A stretch of DNA of 64,000 nt from Solirubrobacterales bacterium (GCA_040508545.1 JBEVMR010000098.1:2885-66884); one strand, 5' to 3'; shown: positions 3,487-31,052, counted from the stretch's first letter. The notes: generated from the sequence alone by a model not told the origin. Made by a program: numbers and translations.

Positions 3487-4149
3487 GTGCAGGAGACAAA
3501 GCCCTCCGGGGGACAGCCGAAGAAACGACCGCGACTGTCGCCCGAGGCGATCACCGAGGCGGCGATCCGGTTGGCCGATGCCGAGGGCCTCGAGGCGGTC
3601 TCGATCAGGCGCGTCGCCGCCGAGCTCGACGCGCGGGCGATGAGCCTCTACGACCATTTCGCCAGCAAGCGCGAGCTGCTCGCCTCGATGGCCGACGAGG
3701 TGGTGGGGGAGATGCTGGTCTCCCAGCCCCTGCCGGAGGCCTGGCGCGAGGGGGTCGCGGTCTCCGCGCGGACGATGTATGCGGCTTACGCCTCACACCC
3801 TTGGGCGATCTTCGCCGCCGCCGAGCGGCTCGGCCCGGGACCCAACGGCCTCAAGCTCGCCAAGCAGATGGCGCGAGCGCTCGCGAATCTCCCGCTCGAG
3901 CATGGCGATGTCTGGCAGGTGCAGGGGATAGTCAACGACTACGTAATCGGCTACTCCTTCCGAACGGTCGGCACCGTGAACCCGGAGGACATGGAAGCGG
4001 CGATCGCGGCCAGCGACATAGTCGAGTTCCCCGAGCTGGCCGCCCTCCCCGACAACCTCCGCAACCGCTCCTCGATAGAGCGCTTCGAACTCGGCCTGCA
4101 GACGGTGCTCGACGGCATCGAGCGGCGCTTTCTCGATCAGCCTGGCTGA
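3487..4149 (+). CDS. TetR/AcrR family transcriptional regulator
   Basis: HTH region SPEAITEAAIRLADAEGLEAVSIRRVAAELDARAMSLYDHFASKRELL. GTG at 3487 chosen as start, because the track ORF from 3142 would overlap the divergent gene. The start is uncertain. Confidence 0.8.
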   Translation: MQETKPSGGQPKKRPRLSPEAITEAAIRLADAEGLEAVSIRRVAAELDARAMSLYDHFASKRELLASMADEVVGEMLVSQPLPEAWREGVAVSARTMYAAYASHPWAIFAAAERLGPGPNGLKLAKQMARALANLPLEHGDVWQVQGIVNDYVIGYSFRTVGTVNPEDMEAAIAASDIVEFPELAALPDNLRNRSSIERFELGLQTVLDGIERRFLDQPG

Positions 4150-4221
4150 GATCCGCGAGGCCATGATCGGGGTAGGTCGCCACTTCTGGCGTGACGTAGC
4201 TGAGATTCCGGGGCGCGTAGG

Positions 4222-5667
4222 ATGAGCGCCACGGTGCCCGAGACCATCCGCGACGCTTCCACGGCCAGCCAGGCCTTCAAGTCCGCACTCGAGGTGGTCG
4301 GCGGTGTGGCGCCGGAGGTGGCCGCCGCGATCCGCAGCGAACTCGAGGACCAGCGGCACGCGCTGAAGCTGATCGCGAGCGAGAACTACAGCTCGCCGGC
4401 CGTCCAGCTGGCGATGGGCCAGTGGATGACCGACAAGTACGCCGAGGGCGCCACGGGCAAGCGCTGGTACGCGGGCTGCGAGAACGTCGACACGGTCGAG
4501 GGCGCCGCCGCGTCGCTGGCTCAGGAGCTGTTCGGGGCTGACCATGCGTACGTGCAGCCGCACAGCGGCGCCGACGCCAACCTCGTCGCCTTCTCGGCGA
4601 TCCTCGCCGAGCGGGTCGAGAAGCCGTACCTCGAAGAGCAGGGCGTGCGGGACTCGCGGCTCCTTTCCGAGGAGCAGTGGGAGGAGCTGCGCCAACGCCT
4701 CGTCAACCAGCGCATGCTCGCGATGGAGCTGACTTCCGGCGGCCACCTGACGCATGGCATGCGGGCGAACCTGTCCGCCAAACTCTTCGAGATCGTCCCC
4801 TACGGGGTGGATCCGGAGTCGGGTCTGCTCGACTACGACCGGGTGCGCGAGCTGGCGCTGGAGACCCGCCCGCTGCTGATTCTCGCGGGCCACAGCTCCT
4901 ACCCGCGCAAGATCGACTTCCGCCGCTTCCGCGAGATCGCTGACGAGGTCGGCGCTGTGTTCATGGTCGACATGGCCCACTTCGCGGGCCTTGTTGCCGG
5001 TGGCGTCTTCGAGGGCGAGTTCGACCCCGTTCCGTACGCGCACCTGGTGACCTCGACGACGCACAAGACGCTGCGCGGCCCGCGCGGTGGTCTCGTGCTG
5101 TGCACGAGCGAGTTCGCAGACGCCGTCGACCGCGGCTGCCCGATGATCCTCGGAGGCCCGCTGTCCCACGTCATGGCGGCGAAGGCCGTCGCGTTCCACG
5201 AAGCGCTTGCACCGGAGTTCCGCGACTACGCGGCGGCGATCGTCGCAAATGCGCGGGCGCTGGCCGAGGCGCTCGTGGCCGGCAGTGAGGTGCTGCAGAC
5301 CGGCGGCACCGAAAACCATCTGCTGCTCGTGGATGTGCGCCAGCATGGCCTCAACGGTCGACAGGCGGAGGCGGCCCTGCGCGAGTGCAACATCGTGCTC
5401 AATCGCAACGTGCTGCCGTACGACCCGAACGGCCCCTGGTTCACCAGCGGCATCCGGCTCGGGACCGCGGCTCTGACCACCCGCGGCTTTGGCGAAGGGG
5501 AGATGGGCCGAATCGCCGAGCTGATCTCCACGGTCCTCGGGGCAGCAGGACCGATCGAGGACGTCCGCGGCAAGCCGGAGCTCCCGCAGACGTTGGTCGA
5601 CGAAGTGCGCGCCACCGTCGAGGAGCTGACGGCGGCGCATCCGCTGTATCCCGGCCTCGTCGTCTGA
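4222..5667 (+). CDS. glyA: Serine hydroxymethyltransferase
   Basis: 481 aa. [32 protein letters not shown] and the PLP-lysine motif [14 protein letters not shown]. Confidence 0.95.
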
Positions 5668-5876
5668 CCCGCGGTGCGGAGCGAGATGGGGGTACACCCG
5701 GCCAGAAGAGTCCTGGAAGGGATGCTCGCGCGAGCCGCTGGCCGGTTTGACTCGCAGGTCGCAGCCTCCAGCATCTGCTGCCAGCTCACCTTCGACGAAT
5801 TGCGTCACATCGCGGGGATGCGGCGGCGGTTGAGAGGTGAAAAACAGAAGCCCCGTTGTGCAGGAGCTTCTGACAG

Positions 5877-5921
5877 TGGAGCTAGGCGGAATCGTAGTGC
5901 CGACCTCCTGGGAGCGATCCA
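5877..5921 (-). repeat. Degenerate direct-repeat copy of the 3' portion of tRNA-Ala(CGC) (distal att-like site of island 1)
   Basis: tggagctaggcggaatcgtagtgccgacctcctgggagcgatcca aligned to 13028-13072 matches at 40 of 45 nt, with two uninterrupted 14-nt runs. Same orientation as the tRNA. Confidence 0.7.
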
Positions 5922-6039
5922 AGTCAGTCGTACAGCGCAGGAGCCAATAAAATCGCTGATTTACAGGGCTTTCTGCAAACACTGAATCCTCCGAAGTATC
6001 TCTGGATAAGCAGGGATATGTGGCGATATGCAGGGAGTC

Positions 6040-6063
6040 GGGCACTTCTGGCGAGAAGTGCCC
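6040..6063 (-). terminator. Stem-loop downstream of the island-1 operon (putative terminator, no U-tract)
   Basis: Perfect 10-bp stem gggcacttct / agaagtgccc with loop ggcg, 52 nt past the stop of ORF 6115..6747. Confidence 0.35.
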
Positions 6064-6114
6064 GAAATCGGGGCAGGGCGGTTGGAACAGTCGCGGAGAA
6101 GCTGGAGGCGTCCG

Positions 6115-6747
6115 TCAGGTCGTCCCGCCGTGCAGAGGCGGAGGCCGCAATGAACTCGTCGCAACGCTACCTGGATGCGTCTCTGCCAGCGGGACTTCCG
6201 GGTCTGCACGCGGCATCGAGTAGCGCGGATGTTCGGGCATGATGACCTGTCCGAACATCATCTCCAGCACGTCCTCGAAGAATCTCGGACGAACTCGTTC
6301 GTGATCAATACGTTCGACAAAGACAAGCAATTGCCGCCGAACCGCATCGAAGATGTCATCTGCCATAACGCTCTGCTGAGTGGCGTCTAACTCTGAGCGG
6401 CGCCAAGACAGGTGTGCGACACGCTGGGAGAATTCTCCCGACAAGCGCTTTAGGGTCCGTCGATCGCTAGTTGAGATTGACCACTCGCCGACAGTGAAGT
6501 TGGAGGCCGTTGCTTCCTTCTGGTTGGGGCGATCGGTCAGGAAGTCGATCAGCTGTCGAGCGTGAATCTGAAATGACTCAATGAGCGCATTGCGAGCCGC
6601 GAGGCCATTCAGCGGAAGATTCGCCACCGCTTGATCATGGTCACCGTTTTGAAGGTGAGTGTGCAGAGAGGCAAACATCTGGATCTCGTAAAGGACGTGC
6701 TCCGATTGCTCGATCGCTTCCTCTCTGGTCCGATCTTTGGGTGTCAT
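6115..6747 (-). CDS. Hypothetical protein, third gene of the island-1 operon
   Basis: 210-aa ATG ORF, same strand as the methyltransferase gene and 50 nt downstream of it. Lower GC. I recognise no family. Confidence 0.6.
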   Translation of the reverse strand: MTPKDRTREEAIEQSEHVLYEIQMFASLHTHLQNGDHDQAVANLPLNGLAARNALIESFQIHARQLIDFLTDRPNQKEATASNFTVGEWSISTSDRRTLKRLSGEFSQRVAHLSWRRSELDATQQSVMADDIFDAVRRQLLVFVERIDHERVRPRFFEDVLEMMFGQVIMPEHPRYSMPRADPEVPLAETHPGSVATSSLRPPPLHGGTT

Positions 6748-6797
6748 GGCGCAATCGTACGGTCGGCCGATCCCGACCCGCGGCGTGACGCTGCTCT

Positions 6798-8069
6798 TCA
6801 GCCCAAGTTGGCCTGCTCGCGGAGCTCCCGGGCCTGCGCACCGGGTCCCTTTCCCTCGCCCGGGTGATCGTCATGTGGACCTGAATGCTCCTCGAGGAAC
6901 TTCTTTGACACGTCCATCACGGGCTCAGGGTCCGGTCGCCCGCTCCGATGTGCGACTGCGAGTGAGAGCGGGTCCTTGAAGACCTCTCCATCCACCGATT
7001 CGAGCACCAGGCGACCGATGCGCTCCGCGAGCGCCGAGGGGACCGCATTTCCGAGCTGCCGGTGGGCGGAAAGGTAAGAGCCCCTGATCTCGACGTTCTT
7101 CGGAAACGTTTGCAGGCGCATCAGCTCATATCGCGAGAGTTTGCGTGAAGACCAGTGGAAAGGCCCGGTCGCAGGGCCAGGCGATGCTGGAAGGGTCCAG
7201 GACGGAAGGTCCTTCGCGAGCTTCAGTAGGAAGCTCCAAAAGCGCGTCCGATACCCGAAGAGCTCCTCGCCTCCTCCTCGGGAGGTGTGCCACAGGTAGT
7301 TCTTGCCCTCGGGGATCGAAGGCAACAGGTCAGCCCACTTGCCCTTCATAGCCAGGTCGTCGAGGTCATCAGGTGTCTCGTCGCCCAGTGCGTCCCAGGC
7401 ATCCCGATGTGGTTGACCGCGATCGGGACCGTGGGTCGGCTCGGCCGCTTCGAGGCGAAGACCTTCTCGAGTGGCACAGAGGAAGAGTCGCTCGCGCTTC
7501 TGGGCGACCCCGAAGTCGACCGCGTTCAGCTTCAGCGAATGGAGCACGTAGCCGGTACCGAGGGCGCCGTTCATCGCTTGAAGGCGCTCGCGGATGAAGC
7601 TGACCACCTCCTCACGCCCGCTCATCGACAGGGACGTGACGTTCTCGATCAAAAGAACGTGGGGTTGGAGCTCCTCGGCGACGTCCATCAGCATGGTCAG
7701 GGTCTCCGCCCTAGGATCCTCGAGCCGAGCCGAGTCGCGATACCACCATCCGGCCTTCGAGAATGGCTGGCAGGGGGGACCTGCGGCGAGGATCCCCACC
7801 GAGCCCTCCTTTAGGGAGAGCTCAGAAAGCAGCTCACTGGGTGCGTAGTCGGCGATGTCACGGAGGCGCGCGAGCGGCCAATCGGGACGATTCGCCTTGA
7901 TCGTGAGGCGCGCATCGACATCCTTCTCGACGCATCCGACGATCTCGAACCCCGCGGCCTCGAGGCCGTAATCGAGCCCGCCGGCACCCGTATAGAGCGA
8001 GAGGACGGTTCGCGGCATCCCGGTCGAGGGTGGGGCAGCGGAAGACGAGGTGGGTATCATGTCGCTCAC
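6798..8069 (-). CDS. DNA (cytosine-5)-methyltransferase
   Basis: 423 aa with ordered C5-MTase motifs: I LYTGAGGLDYG, IV GPPCQPFSKAG, VI LLIENV, VIII QKRERLF, X LGNAVP. Its ATG overlaps the upstream stop (ATGA at 8066-8069). Confidence 0.9.
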   Translation of the reverse strand: MSDMIPTSSSAAPPSTGMPRTVLSLYTGAGGLDYGLEAAGFEIVGCVEKDVDARLTIKANRPDWPLARLRDIADYAPSELLSELSLKEGSVGILAAGPPCQPFSKAGWWYRDSARLEDPRAETLTMLMDVAEELQPHVLLIENVTSLSMSGREEVVSFIRERLQAMNGALGTGYVLHSLKLNAVDFGVAQKRERLFLCATREGLRLEAAEPTHGPDRGQPHRDAWDALGDETPDDLDDLAMKGKWADLLPSIPEGKNYLWHTSRGGGEELFGYRTRFWSFLLKLAKDLPSWTLPASPGPATGPFHWSSRKLSRYELMRLQTFPKNVEIRGSYLSAHRQLGNAVPSALAERIGRLVLESVDGEVFKDPLSLAVAHRSGRPDPEPVMDVSKKFLEEHSGPHDDHPGEGKGPGAQARELREQANLG

Positions 8070-11000
8070 TCGCCCGGCACGATCGGCTCAGCGTCCTCGT
8101 CGGTGATCTCGGCTGCCGCGGCCCTCGACGGCACAAGCACCCGCACCGTCACGCCATCCTCCAGCTGCTCCTCGGCCACGAGTTCATCGCACGTGCTTCG
8201 TAGCGCCTTCCAGAGCATCGCATTGTCGTAGTTCTCAAGCTCCGCCGGTATGTGGTCGAGGAGCGAGGAGGAGACCACGACGATGAGCCGCTCCTCGACG
8301 CGGGAGAAAGCCACGTTTGAACGGTTGAGATCGAGGATGAAGGACTCATATCCCGCGATCGCCGAGGGGTCCGATGCCGTGGCCGAGACGATGATCGCCT
8401 TGCGCTCGCCGCCCTGAAGGCGCTCGACCGTGTCGACGACATCGACGGAGTCCGCCAGCGCGTCGGAAAGGAGCTGGCGCTGCGCCCGATGTGGGGTGAT
8501 GACCGCGATGTCGGAGGACGCCGGGCTGCCCTCCGCCTGGACGACCTTGCCAACGATCTCCACCTCGGTCTGATTCGCCTTCCTCGAGCCACGCTCGTCA
8601 TGGACGACGAGATAGATGCCGCCATCCCCGCGCCAGACGCCCTCCCAAGTGTCAGCGCCGTACTCCTCCGCGGGTGAGGCCTCGCGCTCGACTCCTTGCA
8701 GGTCGATCTGATCGGCTTTGTAGACGCGGCGGATCAGACGGATCACGTCTGGCGGAAGTCGGAAGGAGAGATTGAGCGCGTTCCTTGATATCTGTCGATC
8801 CGTATTCGCTTCGCTCGTGGCGAGACTGGCGATTGCGTCGAAGGCCGAGAGATGAGGCTGATAGATCTCGACCGGGGGCCGGTCCTCCCTCTCCCAGTCG
8901 TGGGCCACGATCGGCGCAAGCTGGCGGTTGTCTCCGGCGAGCATTAGGTACCCCTCGCCCGACACCATCGTCGTGAGGGCGAGGAAGTGGGGGAACACCA
9001 ACATCGATGCCTCGTCAACGATCAGCTCGGCCACCGGGTCGAAGTGCGTTGCCGCCCCATCGATGGTCTTCTGAAGCTTGAGCAGCCCCCGCGTCGTGCC
9101 GGCGAGGATCACGACCCCACAGTCCAGAAACCCGCGCAGCTTCCTGATGATGCCCGAGGTACCGATCCTTTCGCACCCCGCCGGCGGGTCTGCGTCGATG
9201 CGGAGCAGCGAGATTGCGGGCGTCGCGAGTCCCTCCTCGCCGGCCTTCTCCTCAAATTCCTCCCGGAGTTCTGCGATCCGACCGAGCAGGATGTCGACGG
9301 CGGCATGCGTGTTCGCACCGATCGTGATCATGTCTCCCGGAGTTCGGCGCAGGAGGATCCGCGTCAGCACCGAGATAGCGGCGGTCACCGTCTTCCCGGT
9401 TCCAGGCGGACCCTGAAGAAGGGCAGCCCGCGCGTGGAGGCCGTCCATGATCGCCTTGATTTGCGCCTCGGCTAGGGGACGGCCGCGGGACGGACGTAGT
9501 GAGCGGATTACGCGCTCGACCCGCTCTAGGAGCTCCTCGTCGGGGTGGGGCGCCTCGGGCACCTGCGGCGAGATTGGGTCGAGCCAGGCCACGGTCGGGG
9601 CGTCCCCGTGTTCGACGAGGCGTGCCTCCACGGTCCCGGCGACGAAGTCGGATGGGCTCGAGTCCAGGGTGGCGAATTCCTGGTCGGTTAGGAAGTCCAC
9701 CCCGGTTGAGGCCAGCACGTAGCGCGTCGCTTTGCGTCCTCCTCGGGCCTCGATCTCCACCGTGCCGCTCGTCCAGTCGATCTCAGTGACCTGCCCAGTC
9801 ATGCCGGCGCGGGTCAGTTGGCCGAGGGTCTGCCCCCTTTCCGGATCAGGGCCGCGGAGCGTGACCCGCGCCCAGGCGCCCTCGGGCCACGATGCCTGGA
9901 GTGCAGGAAGGTCGGAGTCGAATCCCTCCAAGTCGATCGTCGCGCGAAGCGCGTCTCCGTCGGCCTGCTCAAGGTTCCGGAGGGGCAGGGACGTACCGAG
10001 GGCCACGCGATCGGTCACCGCCGCCAGGTGCTCGCTCAGCCATCGGGTCATGCCGACGTGGTGATCGAGCCGCAGGAAGTCGACCGATGCACGTGCGATG
10101 TCGTTGACGCCGAGGTCGAACCGCGGCAGCTCGGCGAGCGGGATCGCTGGCTTCTGGATTTCGGTATTCCGAGAGCCGACCTGCTCCTCGATCCAGCGAA
10201 GCGCCTCCGCCCGCGCCCCGAGGTAGGCCCTGATCGAGGTCGAGTCGGCCTGGGAGTAGCGGCCGAGCGCCGCCTTTACCTGGTAGGAGTTCTCCTCCCT
10301 CGGATCGGGCAGCGTTCCCCACATCGCCCGCCAGTAGGGCGCCGGAAGGGTGTCGAAGTTGCGTGAACGGATCTCGAAGCGGTGCCGCAGCGCCGCGCCC
10401 TCGGGATCGTCCACCCAGTTGCCGTCTCCGTCGAGCCCGAGCGTGGTCTTGAAGTCGAAGAGGTCCTGCTCGAAGATCCGGTCTAGGTCTCGCTCCTCTC
10501 CGAGCACCCGGCGGCGCCAGTGATAACGATTGCCGAACCAAGTGAGCGACGTCGCCACCACCAGCCCGCGGCTCGTCCAGCCGAGTCCGAAGCGGCGGTT
10601 GATCTCGGTTCCGACGTCGCTGTAGATCATCTGCTCGAGCGACTCACGTGCGCCGAGCAGCTGCCGGAGATGGCCGAGGAGCCGGGTGTCCGCACGGCTG
10701 CAGGCCTCGACCAGCTGGCTCATCTCGTTGGCCGACCAGACGTAGAAGTGCAGACGACAGTCCTCTTCGGGCCGGACGATCTCGGCGATCGCCTCGACCA
10801 GGTCCGTGAGGAACCCCTGAATTAGGACCTTCTCGGCGCCCGTGTCCTCGTCGGGATTTCCCCGCCACGCCGAGGGCATCACGCTGCAGATGGTCCTCGA
10901 CTCGCCCGGATCGAGCTCCCTCTCGGCGATCACCTCTCGCCGGCGCGCTCCGTCGACCTCGGTCCATTCCCGCTTTCGCTCTTGCAGAGTCGGGTTCGGG

Positions 11001-12244
11001 CGCCATCGCCCCTCGACCTCTTGGAAAGGGGTGTGCAGTTCGTGCTCGGAGCGCGTCACGTGGGCGGTCAGGGCGCCGACTCGATTCTCGGCCACGTCAT
11101 AGTCGACCGTTAGATAGATCCGGACCAGCTGCTGTCCGTCGATCTCATGTGCCGGTAGCTGACTTGAGCCCGACCCGCGAAGGGTTGCGACCGGGAAGTC
11201 GTCGGGGTCCTCCTCGCCTCGCGGTAGAGTCGCGCGCCGCGCCTGCGCCCGTTCCTTCAGGCGGCGCAGGCTTTCCGAGAAGCCCGGTCGCTGCCTGAGT
11301 TCGCGGGCCTCAGTTGACTCCAGATCGAGGCTCGCCAGGGTGTCGATGTCGGACACGCCGTGCTCGCGGAGGGCCGAGGCGACCGAGGGCTCGAGGCTGA
11401 GCAACTCAAGTCGTCTTTCCCTCCCAGACTCCGAAAGGCAATCGATGCTGAACACGCATCCGTCGCACTTGCCGCCGAGCTGGAACTGGAGGTCGGGAAG
11501 AGCGGTGGAGGTGATTCGGGAGAGGGGTCCTTTGGGTGCGAGCAGGCGCCTCAGATCTGCTTCCTCGCGGTCGACGTCGCTCAGCTCCTCTAGCTCTTGG
11601 ACGACCTGCGGGCGGCCGGTGTCCTCCTCGATCCGCGCCACCACGGCCCTCACCGATTGCGGTTCGATCGCCCTGCCCGCAACGGAGAGCGGCGCGCTCT
11701 GAAGTAGGTCGCGGAGGAGCATCATGTAGGCGACGACCTGGATGCGGTGATAGGTCCGATCGCGGCGGCTGGCCTTTCCCTCAATGATCCTCAGGGTCGG
11801 CTGATCCCCTTGCCATTCGAGGACGACGAAGTCGATGGCGCCGCGTACCTCGAAAGCCCCGATCCGTCCTTCTACTCCCACCTCGCGGCCGAAGGCGAGC
11901 GAGCCCTCGGGCAGTTCGGCGAGCCCCGCCGCGAACTCCGCCCACTCGGAACGCCGTGGCCGCACCGTGCCGTCTTCGTCTGGTTCTGGTGGGAGCGGCG
12001 TTAATTCGCTGTAGCCGGCCTCGGTCAGCTGCGCGGCCCACGCCTGCTCTCGGTCGGCGCCTGCCTGCGCCAGGATCGGATCGAGGACATTGAACAGTCG
12101 CTCGTAAAACGGAAGCCGCCTTGCCTCCTGACGTTTGTTATAGGAGAGCTTGAAGCGCCGTTCACAGCTCTGGAAGCGAACGAACTCGCCGATGTCCGAT
12201 ACGGAGACTCGGAGTGTTTCCATCGGCGTCTCCCCGTTCGTCAC
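8066..12244 (-). CDS. Cas4/RecB-like 4-Cys PD-(D/E)xK nuclease fused to an SF1 (Dna2/Upf1-like) helicase
   Basis: 1392 aa. N-terminus has C27, D138 (AIDFVV), E155-x-K157 (IIEGK), Q169xxxY173 and C260-x2-C263-x5-C269. C-terminus has Walker A LLQGPPGTGKT (nt about 9389-9412), VDEASM, LAGDNRQLAPI, VITPHRAQ, VDTVERLQGGER and AFSRVEERLIVV. Confidence 0.9.
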   Translation of the reverse strand: MTNGETPMETLRVSVSDIGEFVRFQSCERRFKLSYNKRQEARRLPFYERLFNVLDPILAQAGADREQAWAAQLTEAGYSELTPLPPEPDEDGTVRPRRSEWAEFAAGLAELPEGSLAFGREVGVEGRIGAFEVRGAIDFVVLEWQGDQPTLRIIEGKASRRDRTYHRIQVVAYMMLLRDLLQSAPLSVAGRAIEPQSVRAVVARIEEDTGRPQVVQELEELSDVDREEADLRRLLAPKGPLSRITSTALPDLQFQLGGKCDGCVFSIDCLSESGRERRLELLSLEPSVASALREHGVSDIDTLASLDLESTEARELRQRPGFSESLRRLKERAQARRATLPRGEEDPDDFPVATLRGSGSSQLPAHEIDGQQLVRIYLTVDYDVAENRVGALTAHVTRSEHELHTPFQEVEGRWRPNPTLQERKREWTEVDGARRREVIAERELDPGESRTICSVMPSAWRGNPDEDTGAEKVLIQGFLTDLVEAIAEIVRPEEDCRLHFYVWSANEMSQLVEACSRADTRLLGHLRQLLGARESLEQMIYSDVGTEINRRFGLGWTSRGLVVATSLTWFGNRYHWRRRVLGEERDLDRIFEQDLFDFKTTLGLDGDGNWVDDPEGAALRHRFEIRSRNFDTLPAPYWRAMWGTLPDPREENSYQVKAALGRYSQADSTSIRAYLGARAEALRWIEEQVGSRNTEIQKPAIPLAELPRFDLGVNDIARASVDFLRLDHHVGMTRWLSEHLAAVTDRVALGTSLPLRNLEQADGDALRATIDLEGFDSDLPALQASWPEGAWARVTLRGPDPERGQTLGQLTRAGMTGQVTEIDWTSGTVEIEARGGRKATRYVLASTGVDFLTDQEFATLDSSPSDFVAGTVEARLVEHGDAPTVAWLDPISPQVPEAPHPDEELLERVERVIRSLRPSRGRPLAEAQIKAIMDGLHARAALLQGPPGTGKTVTAAISVLTRILLRRTPGDMITIGANTHAAVDILLGRIAELREEFEEKAGEEGLATPAISLLRIDADPPAGCERIGTSGIIRKLRGFLDCGVVILAGTTRGLLKLQKTIDGAATHFDPVAELIVDEASMLVFPHFLALTTMVSGEGYLMLAGDNRQLAPIVAHDWEREDRPPVEIYQPHLSAFDAIASLATSEANTDRQISRNALNLSFRLPPDVIRLIRRVYKADQIDLQGVEREASPAEEYGADTWEGVWRGDGGIYLVVHDERGSRKANQTEVEIVGKVVQAEGSPASSDIAVITPHRAQRQLLSDALADSVDVVDTVERLQGGERKAIIVSATASDPSAIAGYESFILDLNRSNVAFSRVEERLIVVVSSSLLDHIPAELENYDNAMLWKALRSTCDELVAEEQLEDGVTVRVLVPSRAAAAEITDEDAEPIVPGE

Positions 12245-12387
12245 GCGCCGAGCCTATCGCCGTTCTCAAAGAACACCATGCGGAACGCCGTGTCGAAAAG
12301 CTAGAGACGCTCAATGTGTCGGCTAACGGGCATACCCGTAGGATTTCCACGTATCGTTGGCTCCCGGTGGTCGAATACGATCGATAT

Positions 12388-13089
12388 ATGAGCCAGGCGA
12401 AGGGAGGCATTGCTGAACAAGTGAGCCTGCTGCGTGAGCGACTCACCGCGACGCGGTCCCCGTCCGGTTTCCATCCTTATTGGCCGAACTATCCGGTTAT
12501 GCCTGACGAGCCACTGTGGGCAATCTCTGTACGTGAATCGGACGGAGCATGGAGCGGCTGGTACAGGACGGCGACTCGCGATCTCGATGAAGCCATTGCT
12601 GAGGCACACCGCTTCTCCGGTGTCTCGGCTGAGGCTGACACCAGTGTGCTTCCGACGATTCCCCGATCGGAGTCCTACCGAAGCGCCAATCGCATGCTGA
12701 CGGCCCTGCTCCTGGCGGTTCCGCCCGACCATTCTGAAGCCGTCGCGATGCTTGAGCAGATCCGGCTCACTCTGGTGGCGGTTGCGGAGGCCGAGGAGGA
12801 AGGTCTCTACTTCGGCCCCCTCAGGATCGACCTGCCCATCGCCCTAGAGGTTGGCGCTTTGCTTAGCTCTGCAGTCGGCCAGATGCAAGCGGGAATCCAG
12901 GGTAATCGCCGCAATCCCTTCGCATCGCCGCGATTTCGGGCACTCGTGCCCGAAAGGAGCGCAAATTCAGCGCCGGTTGGAAACGGCTCCAGAAATCAAG
13001 CTGCCCACGTGCAGGGACATCCTCCGATGGAGCTAGGCGGATTCGAACCGCCGACCTCCTGGGTGCGATCCAGGCGCTCTGCCAGCTGA
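12388..13089 (+). CDS. Hypothetical protein; the ORF runs across the att junction into the tRNA-Ala gene
   Basis: ATG at 12388, in frame with track ORF 12214..13089. Divergent from the nuclease-helicase gene. The last ~20 codons are the antisense of the tRNA (MELGGFEPPTSW...), so the C-terminus is created by the junction. It may be a truncated gene. Confidence 0.4.
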   Translation: MSQAKGGIAEQVSLLRERLTATRSPSGFHPYWPNYPVMPDEPLWAISVRESDGAWSGWYRTATRDLDEAIAEAHRFSGVSAEADTSVLPTIPRSESYRSANRMLTALLLAVPPDHSEAVAMLEQIRLTLVAVAEAEEEGLYFGPLRIDLPIALEVGALLSSAVGQMQAGIQGNRRNPFASPRFRALVPERSANSAPVGNGSRNQAAHVQGHPPMELGGFEPPTSWVRSRRSAS

Positions 13090-13100
13090 GCTATAGCCCC
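13028..13100 (-). tRNA. tRNA-Ala (anticodon CGC)
   Basis: Reverse complement GGGGCTATAGCTCAGCTGGCAGAGCGCCTGGATCGCACCCAGGAGGTCGGCGGTTCGAATCCGCCTAGCTCCA folds as a 73-nt cloverleaf with the G3:U70 Ala identity pair and anticodon loop ATCGCAC. Confidence 0.9.
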
Positions 13101-15987: not shown

Positions 15988-16488
15988 ATGGCTGCGCTGA
16001 AGCAAAAGGGGGATTTGGCCGAGCTCAAGGTGGCCGCTGACCTGGCGAGTCGCGGCTGCTGCATCTCGATCCCCTACGGCGAGGACTGCGACTACGACCT
16101 GATTGCCGACAGGCAGGGTGTTCTCCATCGCGTGCAGGTCAAATACACGGAGTCAGACGGAGAGGTCATCGCGGTTCGCTGCATGTCGCATTCCCTGACC
16201 AACGGGAAGATTCGGCAGACCAAGCATTACACGGCTGAGCTCGTCGATTGGATTGCCGTCTATGACCGAACTTCGGAGTGCTGTTACTACGTCCCGGCGA
16301 GCGAGCTGGGATCCGGGAGAAGCTACCTGCACCTTCGCCTCGTTCCAGCCCGCAACGGTCAGCGCGTAGGCATCCGCAACGCGTGTGACTACGCAGACCC
16401 CGATCTTGCGCGAGATCCGCGAGGAGTGGAGCCAGCGGGACTCGAACCCGCGGCCTCCGCCGTGCAAGGGCGGCGCTCTTCCAGCTGA
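15988..16488 (+). CDS. PD-(D/E)xK endonuclease-like protein (resembles the PDDEXK_5 / group I intron-type endonuclease family)
   Basis: 166 aa. KGDLAELKVAADLASRG...PYGEDCDYDLIAD...RVQVKY matches the D...(D/E)xK layout. Family assignment is from memory. Lower GC. The 3' end overlaps tRNA-Ala(UGC) by 62 nt. Confidence 0.6.
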   Translation: MAALKQKGDLAELKVAADLASRGCCISIPYGEDCDYDLIADRQGVLHRVQVKYTESDGEVIAVRCMSHSLTNGKIRQTKHYTAELVDWIAVYDRTSECCYYVPASELGSGRSYLHLRLVPARNGQRVGIRNACDYADPDLARDPRGVEPAGLEPAASAVQGRRSSS

Positions 16489-16499
16489 GCTATGGCCCC
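16427..16499 (-). tRNA. tRNA-Ala (anticodon UGC)
   Basis: Reverse complement GGGGCCATAGCTCAGCTGGAAGAGCGCCGCCCTTGCACGGCGGAGGCCGCGGGTTCGAGTCCCGCTGGCTCCA. 73 nt, G3:U70 pair, anticodon loop CTTGCAC. Confidence 0.9.
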
Positions 16500-30867: not shown

Positions 30868-30941
30868 GCCCCTGTAGCTCAGTTGGTTAGAGCGGCGGCC
30901 TTTTAAGCCGCGCGGCGCGGGTTCGAATCCCGCCGGGGGCA
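30868..30941 (+). tRNA. tRNA-Lys (anticodon UUU)
   Basis: GCCCCTGTAGCTCAGTTGGTTAGAGCGGCGGCCTTTTAAGCCGCGCGGCGCGGGTTCGAATCCCGCCGGGGGCA. 74-nt cloverleaf, anticodon loop CTTTTAA. Confidence 0.9.
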
Positions 30942-31052
30942 CTCAGTGACAAGCGCCCAATGCCGCCGTCACGGCCTACATTGGATCGACGTATCGGCTC
31001 CCGTGGGTACCGCATTTGGGTACCAAGGAGCCCGTTGGGCGACCGAGCAATT

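Follow-up and report, generated by a model that had tools for sequence, protein, structure and literature searches.

In a window of 64,000 nucleotides from a Solirubrobacterales bacterium (GCA_040508545.1 JBEVMR010000098.1:2885-66884; the window is the whole stretch of DNA that was analyzed), an open reading frame (ORF) of 1392 codons on the minus strand (8066..12244) encodes a Bad-like (bacterial DNA2-like) enzyme that combines an iron-staple nuclease, a central module, a beta-barrel, and a superfamily 1B (SF1B) helicase in one polypeptide. Its stop codon overlaps the start of a gene for a C5 cytosine DNA methyltransferase (6798..8069, minus), the two genes lie in an island bounded by a tRNA-Ala gene, and linkage to a C5 methylase recurs among relatives. 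We tentatively propose that the nuclease-helicase and the methylase form a restriction-modification (R-M)-like defense module related to Bad. A preliminary description of this DNA had seen in the ORF a bacterial Dna2-like layout within a mobile island, and the present analysis supports that view. The methylase at the stop of the ORF, translationally coupled to it and absent from that description, is the main clue to function; the earlier description did not mention Bad either.

Nuclease and helicase domains

The ORF is present as first described, and its strand, previously unstated, is minus. It begins with GTG and ends with TGA. Its GC content by codon position (GC3 of 0.82 versus GC2 of 0.47), the existence of more than 120 full-length homologues with 45–90% identity, and the 300 alignment columns that are at least 95% conserved in these homologues (n = 120) indicate that it is a real gene and not a chance ORF. 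Translation probably begins not at the GTG of 12244 but at the ATG of 12223 (residue M8), which a Shine-Dalgarno-like GGGGAG precedes; alignments of homologues to the window protein start at residues 6–13. Residue numbers are nevertheless counted from the GTG at 12244 throughout.

Residues ∼10–278 (11411..12217, minus) constitute a PD-(D/E)xK nuclease of the iron-staple type found in Cas4, AddB, and Dna2, as judged by Pfam, Foldseek, and conservation. The Pfam family PDDEXK_1 (PF12705) matches residues 23–267 with 38.9 bits (E = 1.2e-9) against a gathering score of 22, and the PADLOC Cas4 profiles give weaker matches to residues 122–181. The motifs on which the preliminary description relied are all at the residues it had given: C27 in FQSCERRF, D138, E155 and K157, Q169 and Y173, and the triad C260-x2-C263-x5-C269. 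The key nuclease residues identified by conservation (E121, D138, E155-x-K157, and Q169-x3-Y173; within 11411..12217, minus) are 98–100% conserved in the same 120 homologues. Among 47 distant relatives and in archaeal loci with ∼25% identity, D138, K157, Q169, and Y173 are kept and position 155 is D or E. Of these distant relatives, 46 have Q at position 121, where the window protein has E121.

The four cysteines are the candidate ligands of an iron-sulfur (Fe-S) cluster. The first, C27 (codon 12164..12166, minus), is found in 98% of the 120 homologues, and the three C-terminal candidates C260, C263, and C269 (11438..11467, minus) are 100% conserved; all four are retained in 47 of 47 distant relatives as well as in the archaeal loci. 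An AlphaFold2 model of residues 1–930 (pLDDT of 89, pTM of 0.87) was compared by Foldseek with the PDB, and the matches include mouse Dna2, human EXO5, Cas4 SSO0001, AddB, and MGME1, with probabilities of 0.95–1.0 for EXO5 and Cas4. The preliminary description had named two outcomes that would count against its assignment, failure of profile searches to place the N-terminus in the Cas4/RecB nuclease clan and lack of conservation of the cysteines among homologues; the N-terminus falls in this clan by both Pfam and fold, and the cysteines are conserved.

The C-terminal helicase spans residues ∼920–1340 (8225..9487, minus) and is assigned by Pfam, by its match to a Dna2 structure, and by conservation. 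AAA_11 (residues 925–997, 48.4 bits) and AAA_12 (residues 1215–1325, 61.2 bits) both exceed their cut-offs of 27. The best match of the window protein in the PDB by sequence is Dna2 (5EAW; residues 938–1334, 1.8e-11), followed by IGHMBP2 and Upf1. The SF1 helicase of the preliminary description is thus borne out and is more exactly an SF1B helicase of the Dna2/Upf1 type. Its motifs are located at GPPGTGKT (945–952), VDEASM (1076–1081), GDNRQLAPI (1104–1112), TPHRAQ (1250–1255), VERLQGGER (1273–1281), and AFSRVEERL (1312–1320). The set is intact, with key residues K951 (Walker A), D1077-E1078, Q1108, R1281, and R1315 (within 8225..9487, minus), and motifs I, II, III, V, and VI are invariant in the 120 homologues.

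This architecture resembles that of Bad from Geobacillus stearothermophilus, a protein of 1245 residues with an iron-staple nuclease, a central domain called "completely unknown," and an SF1B helicase (Wilkinson et al. 2020, PMC7430649). Bad is an Fe-S protein that loops single-stranded DNA as it translocates 5'-3', cuts 5' overhangs, and needs a 5' single-stranded entry site but no recognition sequence; it always neighbors a Type III Mod-like methylase, and a new class of restriction enzyme was proposed by its authors (PMC7430649). We found no follow-up literature on Bad. Bad and the window protein share a four-cysteine iron-staple nuclease of the RecB family, a large central domain without a database match, and a C-terminal SF1B helicase, and Bad and the window family share a sporadic distribution in bacteria and archaea and an adjacent DNA methyltransferase gene. 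They differ in that the window protein is 147 residues longer than Bad (WP_053413574; Walker A K951 versus K815) and in the methylase partner, which is a C5 enzyme in the window and a Type III Mod-like N6 enzyme for Bad. The comparison with Bad is one of published layout, size, and gene neighborhood. By analogy to Bad and to the nuclease clan, the window protein is predicted to bind an Fe-S cluster, and family membership together with Bad suggests a 5'-3' polarity for its helicase. A profile search that used distant relatives as the query returned no named Geobacillus or methanogen protein.

Eukaryotic Dna2 (PDB 5EAN/5EAW) has the same order of Fe-S PD-(D/E)xK nuclease, barrel, and SF1B helicase, and is the best match of the window protein in the PDB both by sequence, through the helicase, and by fold. 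Relative to Dna2, however, the window protein has ∼450 extra residues (∼340–800) between nuclease and helicase and is without the N-terminal OB/alpha1 region. We reject the window protein as an orthologue of Dna2: the sequence match is limited to residues 938–1334, a module of ∼450 residues intervenes, and the gene is island-borne and linked to a methylase. The nuclease domains of Cas4, AddB, and EXO5 likewise have the same 1 + 3 cysteines around a PD-(D/E)xK core. Cas4 and EXO5 are stand-alone proteins, AddB is joined to an inactive SF1A-like domain, and the window protein has no CRISPR link.

Fusions of an SF1 helicase to a Cas4-like nuclease ("UvrD-Cas4") adjoin Dcm genes, sometimes with Vsr, or Type III R-M genes, and were predicted to have defense roles, possibly ancillary ones (Hudaiberdiev et al. 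2017, PMC5704561). These fusions and the window protein have in common a pfam12705 nuclease, an SF1 helicase, a recurrent Dcm neighbor, and sometimes Vsr. Their helicase is described as UvrD-like (SF1A, 3'-5') whereas that of the window protein is SF1B.

Central region

Four parts can be distinguished between nuclease and helicase. Residues 279–340 (11225..11410, minus) form five short helices according to DSSP of the model and may be a helix-hairpin-helix linker; the alignment of TIGR03491 to the window protein extends to residue 315, and short TM0106-type proteins have HHH_5 at the equivalent position. Next is the core of a family-specific central module (residues ∼366–625; 10370..11149, minus), a candidate divergent RNase-H-like nuclease with a D-E-D-D set of residues. 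In the model, the core consists of a beta-beta-[beta-rich insertion]-beta-alpha-beta-alpha unit at ∼366–530, with the insertion at ∼399–446, and continues to ∼625. The module is continued by a helical part (residues 635–750; 9995..10342, minus), also as modeled, and followed by a beta-barrel (residues 752–862; 9659..9991, minus) that is supported by DSSP and by barrel-type matches in Foldseek. In position, this barrel appears comparable to the barrel/stalk of Dna2.

The module is restricted in its occurrence. An exhaustive phmmer search of 1.84 billion representative proteins found it in only 200 clusters, always at approximately residues 330–780 of proteins of 1300–1550 residues or in fragments of such proteins, and it is therefore specific to the nuclease-module-helicase architecture. 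Pfam searches with residues 340–760 of ten diverse family members detected neither RNase_H_2 nor any consistent match at E ≤ 10, RNase_H_2 (PF13482) was also not found in four distant relatives, and nothing was matched by the module in PHROGs or in sequence-profile searches of the PDB. A separate model of the module (pLDDT of 85) has no significant match in Foldseek, with best E values of 0.45 (PDB) and 0.075 (BFVD). Its weak, low-probability matches include the PIWI domain of RsAgo, LC9-RNase H1, FtsA, and two viral RNase H entries.

Conserved residues in the module may be catalytic. Across 80 sequences, including relatives with 25–30% identity, D383, E471, and H499 never vary; 75 of the sequences have D or E at position 507, and 77 retain D597. 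In the model these residues occupy the end of strand one, helix one, a site immediately following strand four, and a later helix, a placement typical of the D-E-D-D residues of RNase H-like enzymes. An hhalign comparison of the window central region with the middle region of TM0106-type proteins is weak but in register (P = 0.038); when the insertion at 399–446 is removed, P is 0.009–0.024 and the score is higher than that of all 40 column-shuffled controls. In this weak alignment W460, E471, K472, H499, Y501, and E507 align with identical residues of the TM0106 protein. We consider it reasonably probable, from these sequence patterns, that the central module is a divergent RNase-H-fold nuclease. 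An RNase-H-like module had been suspected here in the preliminary description; the conserved D-E-D-D set and the weak in-register alignment make that idea plausible, while Pfam, the PDB, and Foldseek gave no significant match.

The same description had invoked a TM0106-type layout of nuclease followed by RNase-H module, and this layout does exist, fused to a like helicase, in Mesorhizobium. Fusions of this type (TIGR03491, PF13482 RNase_H_2, and AAA_11/12; for example WP_258124244.1 of Mesorhizobium) have the domain order of the window protein, and the TM0106-annotated Mesorhizobium protein from the plasmid search has PDDEXK_1, RNase_H_2 (314–490), and AAA_11/AAA_12. The window protein itself is not a member of the TM0106 family, as it scores 24.9 bits with TIGR03491 against a cut-off of 97.45 and aligns only to model positions 8–250, the nuclease part. 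The TM0106-type nuclease-helicases are a large uncharacterized sister family, with more than 4,383 clusters, far more than the window family. In the one locus read, on Mesorhizobium plasmid pOM4 (L016, 1-7278), a TM0106-type protein of 1124 residues adjoins WYL and SbcCD-like genes.

Methylase, island, and proposed function

The C5 methyltransferase is identified by Pfam DNA_methylase (7e-42), by TIGR00675, and by GAGG, PCQ (with C100), ENV, QKR, and GN, which correspond to motifs I, IV, VI, VIII, and X. Its GTG start overlaps the stop of the nuclease-helicase by 4 nt, an arrangement that argues for co-expression of the two genes; an alternative ATG is 5 nt past the stop. Both are on an island of 7.1 kb. 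A direct repeat of 64 nt with 80% identity links the intact tRNA-Ala(cgc) gene at the right boundary (13028-13100, with the second repeat copy at 13009-13072; together 13009..13100, minus) to a degenerate copy of the 3' part of the tRNA plus 19 nt at the left boundary (5858..5921, undirected as to strand). GC content is 0.57–0.67 across ∼5860-13030 versus 0.68–0.74 outside, and the genes beyond its boundaries are typical of the host: glyA and a TetR-family gene to one side, ABC transporter genes to the other. The tRNA, its repeat, and the low-GC segment they enclose support the earlier claim of a mobile island, in which no integrase is present. Searches of Pfam, NCBIfam, and PADLOC recognized nothing in the island other than the nuclease-helicase and the methylase. 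A homologue with 90% identity (locus L001) likewise has tRNA-Ala(cgc) immediately upstream. A second copy of the 90%-identical module has a Vsr gene after its methylase (L002, 6091-6480); the window island is without Vsr.

Linkage to a C5 methylase is common among relatives. In 20 of 34 assessable relatives (59%), those whose loci extend at least 1.4 kb to each side of the gene, a C5 methylase is encoded within ∼1.2 kb, and in the metagenome subset 14 of 26 have one within 1 kb. These counts are lower bounds, since the profile used to detect methylases derives from family-linked enzymes. Adjacent C5 methylases span several phyla, with examples in Afipia (where the genes are convergent), Actinoplanes, Pseudomonas fulva, Kocuria, and several metagenomic contigs, and the methylase can be upstream, downstream, convergent, or divergent. 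The identities of the two partners are weakly correlated (Mantel r of 0.37, p = 0.0006), and the methylase is the more divergent of the two (median identity of 40% versus 47% for the nuclease-helicase). Among loci that hold the whole gene, broken copies with stops or deletions account for 3 of 30 that lack a detected methylase versus 0 of 25 that are linked to one, numbers too small for a conclusion; the loci cited for broken copies are L009 (7429-9699), L024, L072, and L078.

Relatives occur among genes associated with conflict. Their neighbors include toxin-antitoxin genes, AbiEii, an SMC-like ATPase, a NACHT protein, and an SNF2 helicase with an N6 methylase, and some relatives are plasmid-borne. 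The methylase-less loci examined adjoin other conflict genes. In one, the family member is followed by an SNF2 helicase and then by an Eco57I/MmeI-type N6 methylase of 1372 residues (L034, 5957-13128), a neighborhood that resembles those of DISARM or BREX. In another, the SNF2 helicase follows alone (L066, 12710-15742). Two further Dcm-less members adjoin a UvrD-type helicase (L060, 5637-8201; L053, 13180-18926), followed in L053 by a large PDDEXK_1 protein to give an AddAB/AdnAB-like pair. One methylase-less copy is beside a trypsin-NACHT protein, and cyanobacterial copies are solitary. Relatives with 27% identity on haloarchaeal plasmids adjoin Piwi and SbcCD-like genes, or a TM0106-type RNase_H_2 protein and a DEAD helicase. 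On a plasmid of Salinigranum rubrum (L018, 2535-13479), one such relative, alike in architecture, has a Piwi-domain (pAgo) gene and SbcCD-like metallophosphoesterase and ATPase genes at its flanks, which suggests a pAgo-associated branch of the nuclease-helicase superfamily. A scan of genome contigs, dominated by the Walker A pattern, gave eight loci. Viral contigs and phage genomes yielded no relative of the window protein, and a phage origin is rejected on this basis.

The architecture, the coupling of the genes, the recurrent methylase linkage, the island, plasmid, and defense setting, and the precedent of Bad lead us to favor, with some reserve, a defense module of the R-M type. The two genes would be co-transcribed from the island inserted at tRNA-Ala, and the methylase would mark host DNA and provide sequence specificity. 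Where unmarked DNA offers a single-stranded entry, at a nick, flap, or end, the motor would load and translocate 5'-3' at the expense of ATP while the nuclease domain or domains shred the DNA. As in Dna2 and Bad, the Fe-S nuclease would cut the tracked strand, and the central module, if active, would cut the displaced strand. Sensitivity to methylation is accordingly a prediction of this scheme. Like the window pair, Type III and Type ISP restriction enzymes have an ATP-dependent helicase-type motor, a PD-(D/E)xK nuclease, and a methyltransferase that defines self; unlike the window pair, their motors are non-unwinding and of SF2, their methylases are N6 or N4 enzymes, and they are without an Fe-S cluster or a second nuclease module.

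Several observations count against an R-M-like module. No adjacent C5 methylase is present in 14 of the 34 assessable relatives, and of the 30 whole-gene loci in which no methylase was detected, 27 have an intact copy; therefore, a cognate methylase nearby is not obligatory. The Mantel correlation falls to 0.21 without close pairs, indicating loose co-evolution with the methylase. Neither a target-recognition domain nor one that reads 5-methylcytosine (5mC) was recognized in the window protein. PADLOC v2 and the classical R-M Types I–IV provide no system-specific match for the effector: its PADLOC matches (MkoA, DpdJ, and MkoC) involve the helicase domain only, and those of the methylase are to the generic models MTase_II, DruM, and DrmMII. 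Lastly, a relative of the size of Bad (P0289; Walker A at 828–835) shares the nuclease and helicase and not the central module, its match picking up again at profile position 794 of 1342 (in profile numbering, not window residues).

The main rival to the R-M-like reading is an ancillary nuclease-helicase that processes DNA ends independently of methylation in the service of various defense modules, with the methylase a frequent and dispensable neighbor. The many intact copies without a methylase are expected under this explanation, as are their varied settings beside SNF2 and an Eco57I-type N6 methylase, UvrD and PDDEXK_1, a trypsin-NACHT protein, or, for the relatives with 27% identity, Piwi and SbcCD-like genes. 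Such a role was proposed for helicase-Cas4-like fusions (PMC5704561), and the requirement of Bad for a 5' single-stranded entry rather than a recognition sequence (PMC7430649) fits it as well. We nevertheless regard it as rather unlikely for the window pair, as the methylase start overlapping the stop codon argues for co-expression, adjacency to one enzyme class in 59% of relatives and in all orientations is far above chance, and the island has nothing else recognizable.

A housekeeping enzyme of recombination or repair, a single-chain analogue of AddAB/RecBCD or of Dna2 carried on islands by chance, would account for the homology to Dna2 and AddB domains, for a design of two nucleases and a helicase that resembles end-resection machines, and for the AddAB-like neighbor genes in L053 and L060. 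It is improbable given that the family is sporadic, with ∼200 clusters at 50% identity among the 1.84 billion representative proteins, that it is borne by islands and plasmids with GC content below that of the host, and that its flanks differ from locus to locus. Another alternative is an effector of the modification-dependent (Type IV-like) or guard type, one that responds to foreign modification or to a blocked methylase and not to missing methylation. The viability of solo copies and the diversity of methylase partners favor it only indirectly, and it is very hard to credit because Pfam and Foldseek reveal no domain that reads modified bases (SRA, YTH, or Mrr-N type) and because a 5mC-dependent nuclease paired with a 5mC methylase would be self-destructive.

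An R-M-like module could further be the prototype of an unclassified ATP-dependent R-M type, in which an unwinding SF1B polypeptide with two nucleases (Fe-S PD-(D/E)xK and RNase-H-fold D-E-D-D) destroys DNA without the C5-methylase mark. We put this forward as a doubtful extension. To our knowledge, none of the R-M classes combines an SF1B helicase, an iron-sulfur nuclease, or a C5 methylase with such a motor. If true, the pair would represent a mechanistically distinct class of R-M, with an unwinding 5'-3' SF1B motor and an iron-sulfur nuclease governed by 5mC, and would give a biological role to Bad/DNA2-like enzymes, which are biochemically well studied but functionally orphan. The idea has forerunners: earlier work on Bad (2020) and on helicase-Cas4-like fusions (2017) had put forward a methylase link and a role in defense. 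New relative to Bad are the class of methylase, the size, a central module without a counterpart in the Bad-sized relative, and a putative catalytic assignment for this module. The conserved D-E-D-D set is a concrete, testable assignment for a type of domain called "completely unknown" in the study of Bad, and would join the TM0106-helicase, Bad-like, and window families into one lineage.

Other features of the window

The last gene of the putative operon is a low-GC ORF of 210 codons (6115..6747, minus). Searches of Pfam, NCBIfam, PADLOC, and PHROGs gave no match for it, and nothing comparable is encoded beside relatives of the window protein. Because it is not conserved there, we do not count it as a core component; it may be cargo of the island or a regulator. 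Downstream of the operon is a terminator-like hairpin with a 10-bp stem followed by a T run (5845..5872, minus).

Three other ORFs in or near the island are discounted. A 750-codon ORF at 3793-6045(-) is spurious, as it is antisense to the high-GC glyA (serine hydroxymethyltransferase, SHMT) at 4222-5667(+), which is supported by a match of 4e-121 and a GC3 of 0.90. Two more, at 12301-12732(-) and 12214-13089(+), probably do not code for protein; both have low GC3 and no matches, and the latter runs across the tRNA. By exact matches to the proteins MET0306634.1 and MET0306639.1, the contig is part of a metagenome-assembled genome of Solirubrobacterales. The window has two more tRNA genes, for Ala(tgc) at 16426-16499 and Lys(ttt) at 30868-30942.

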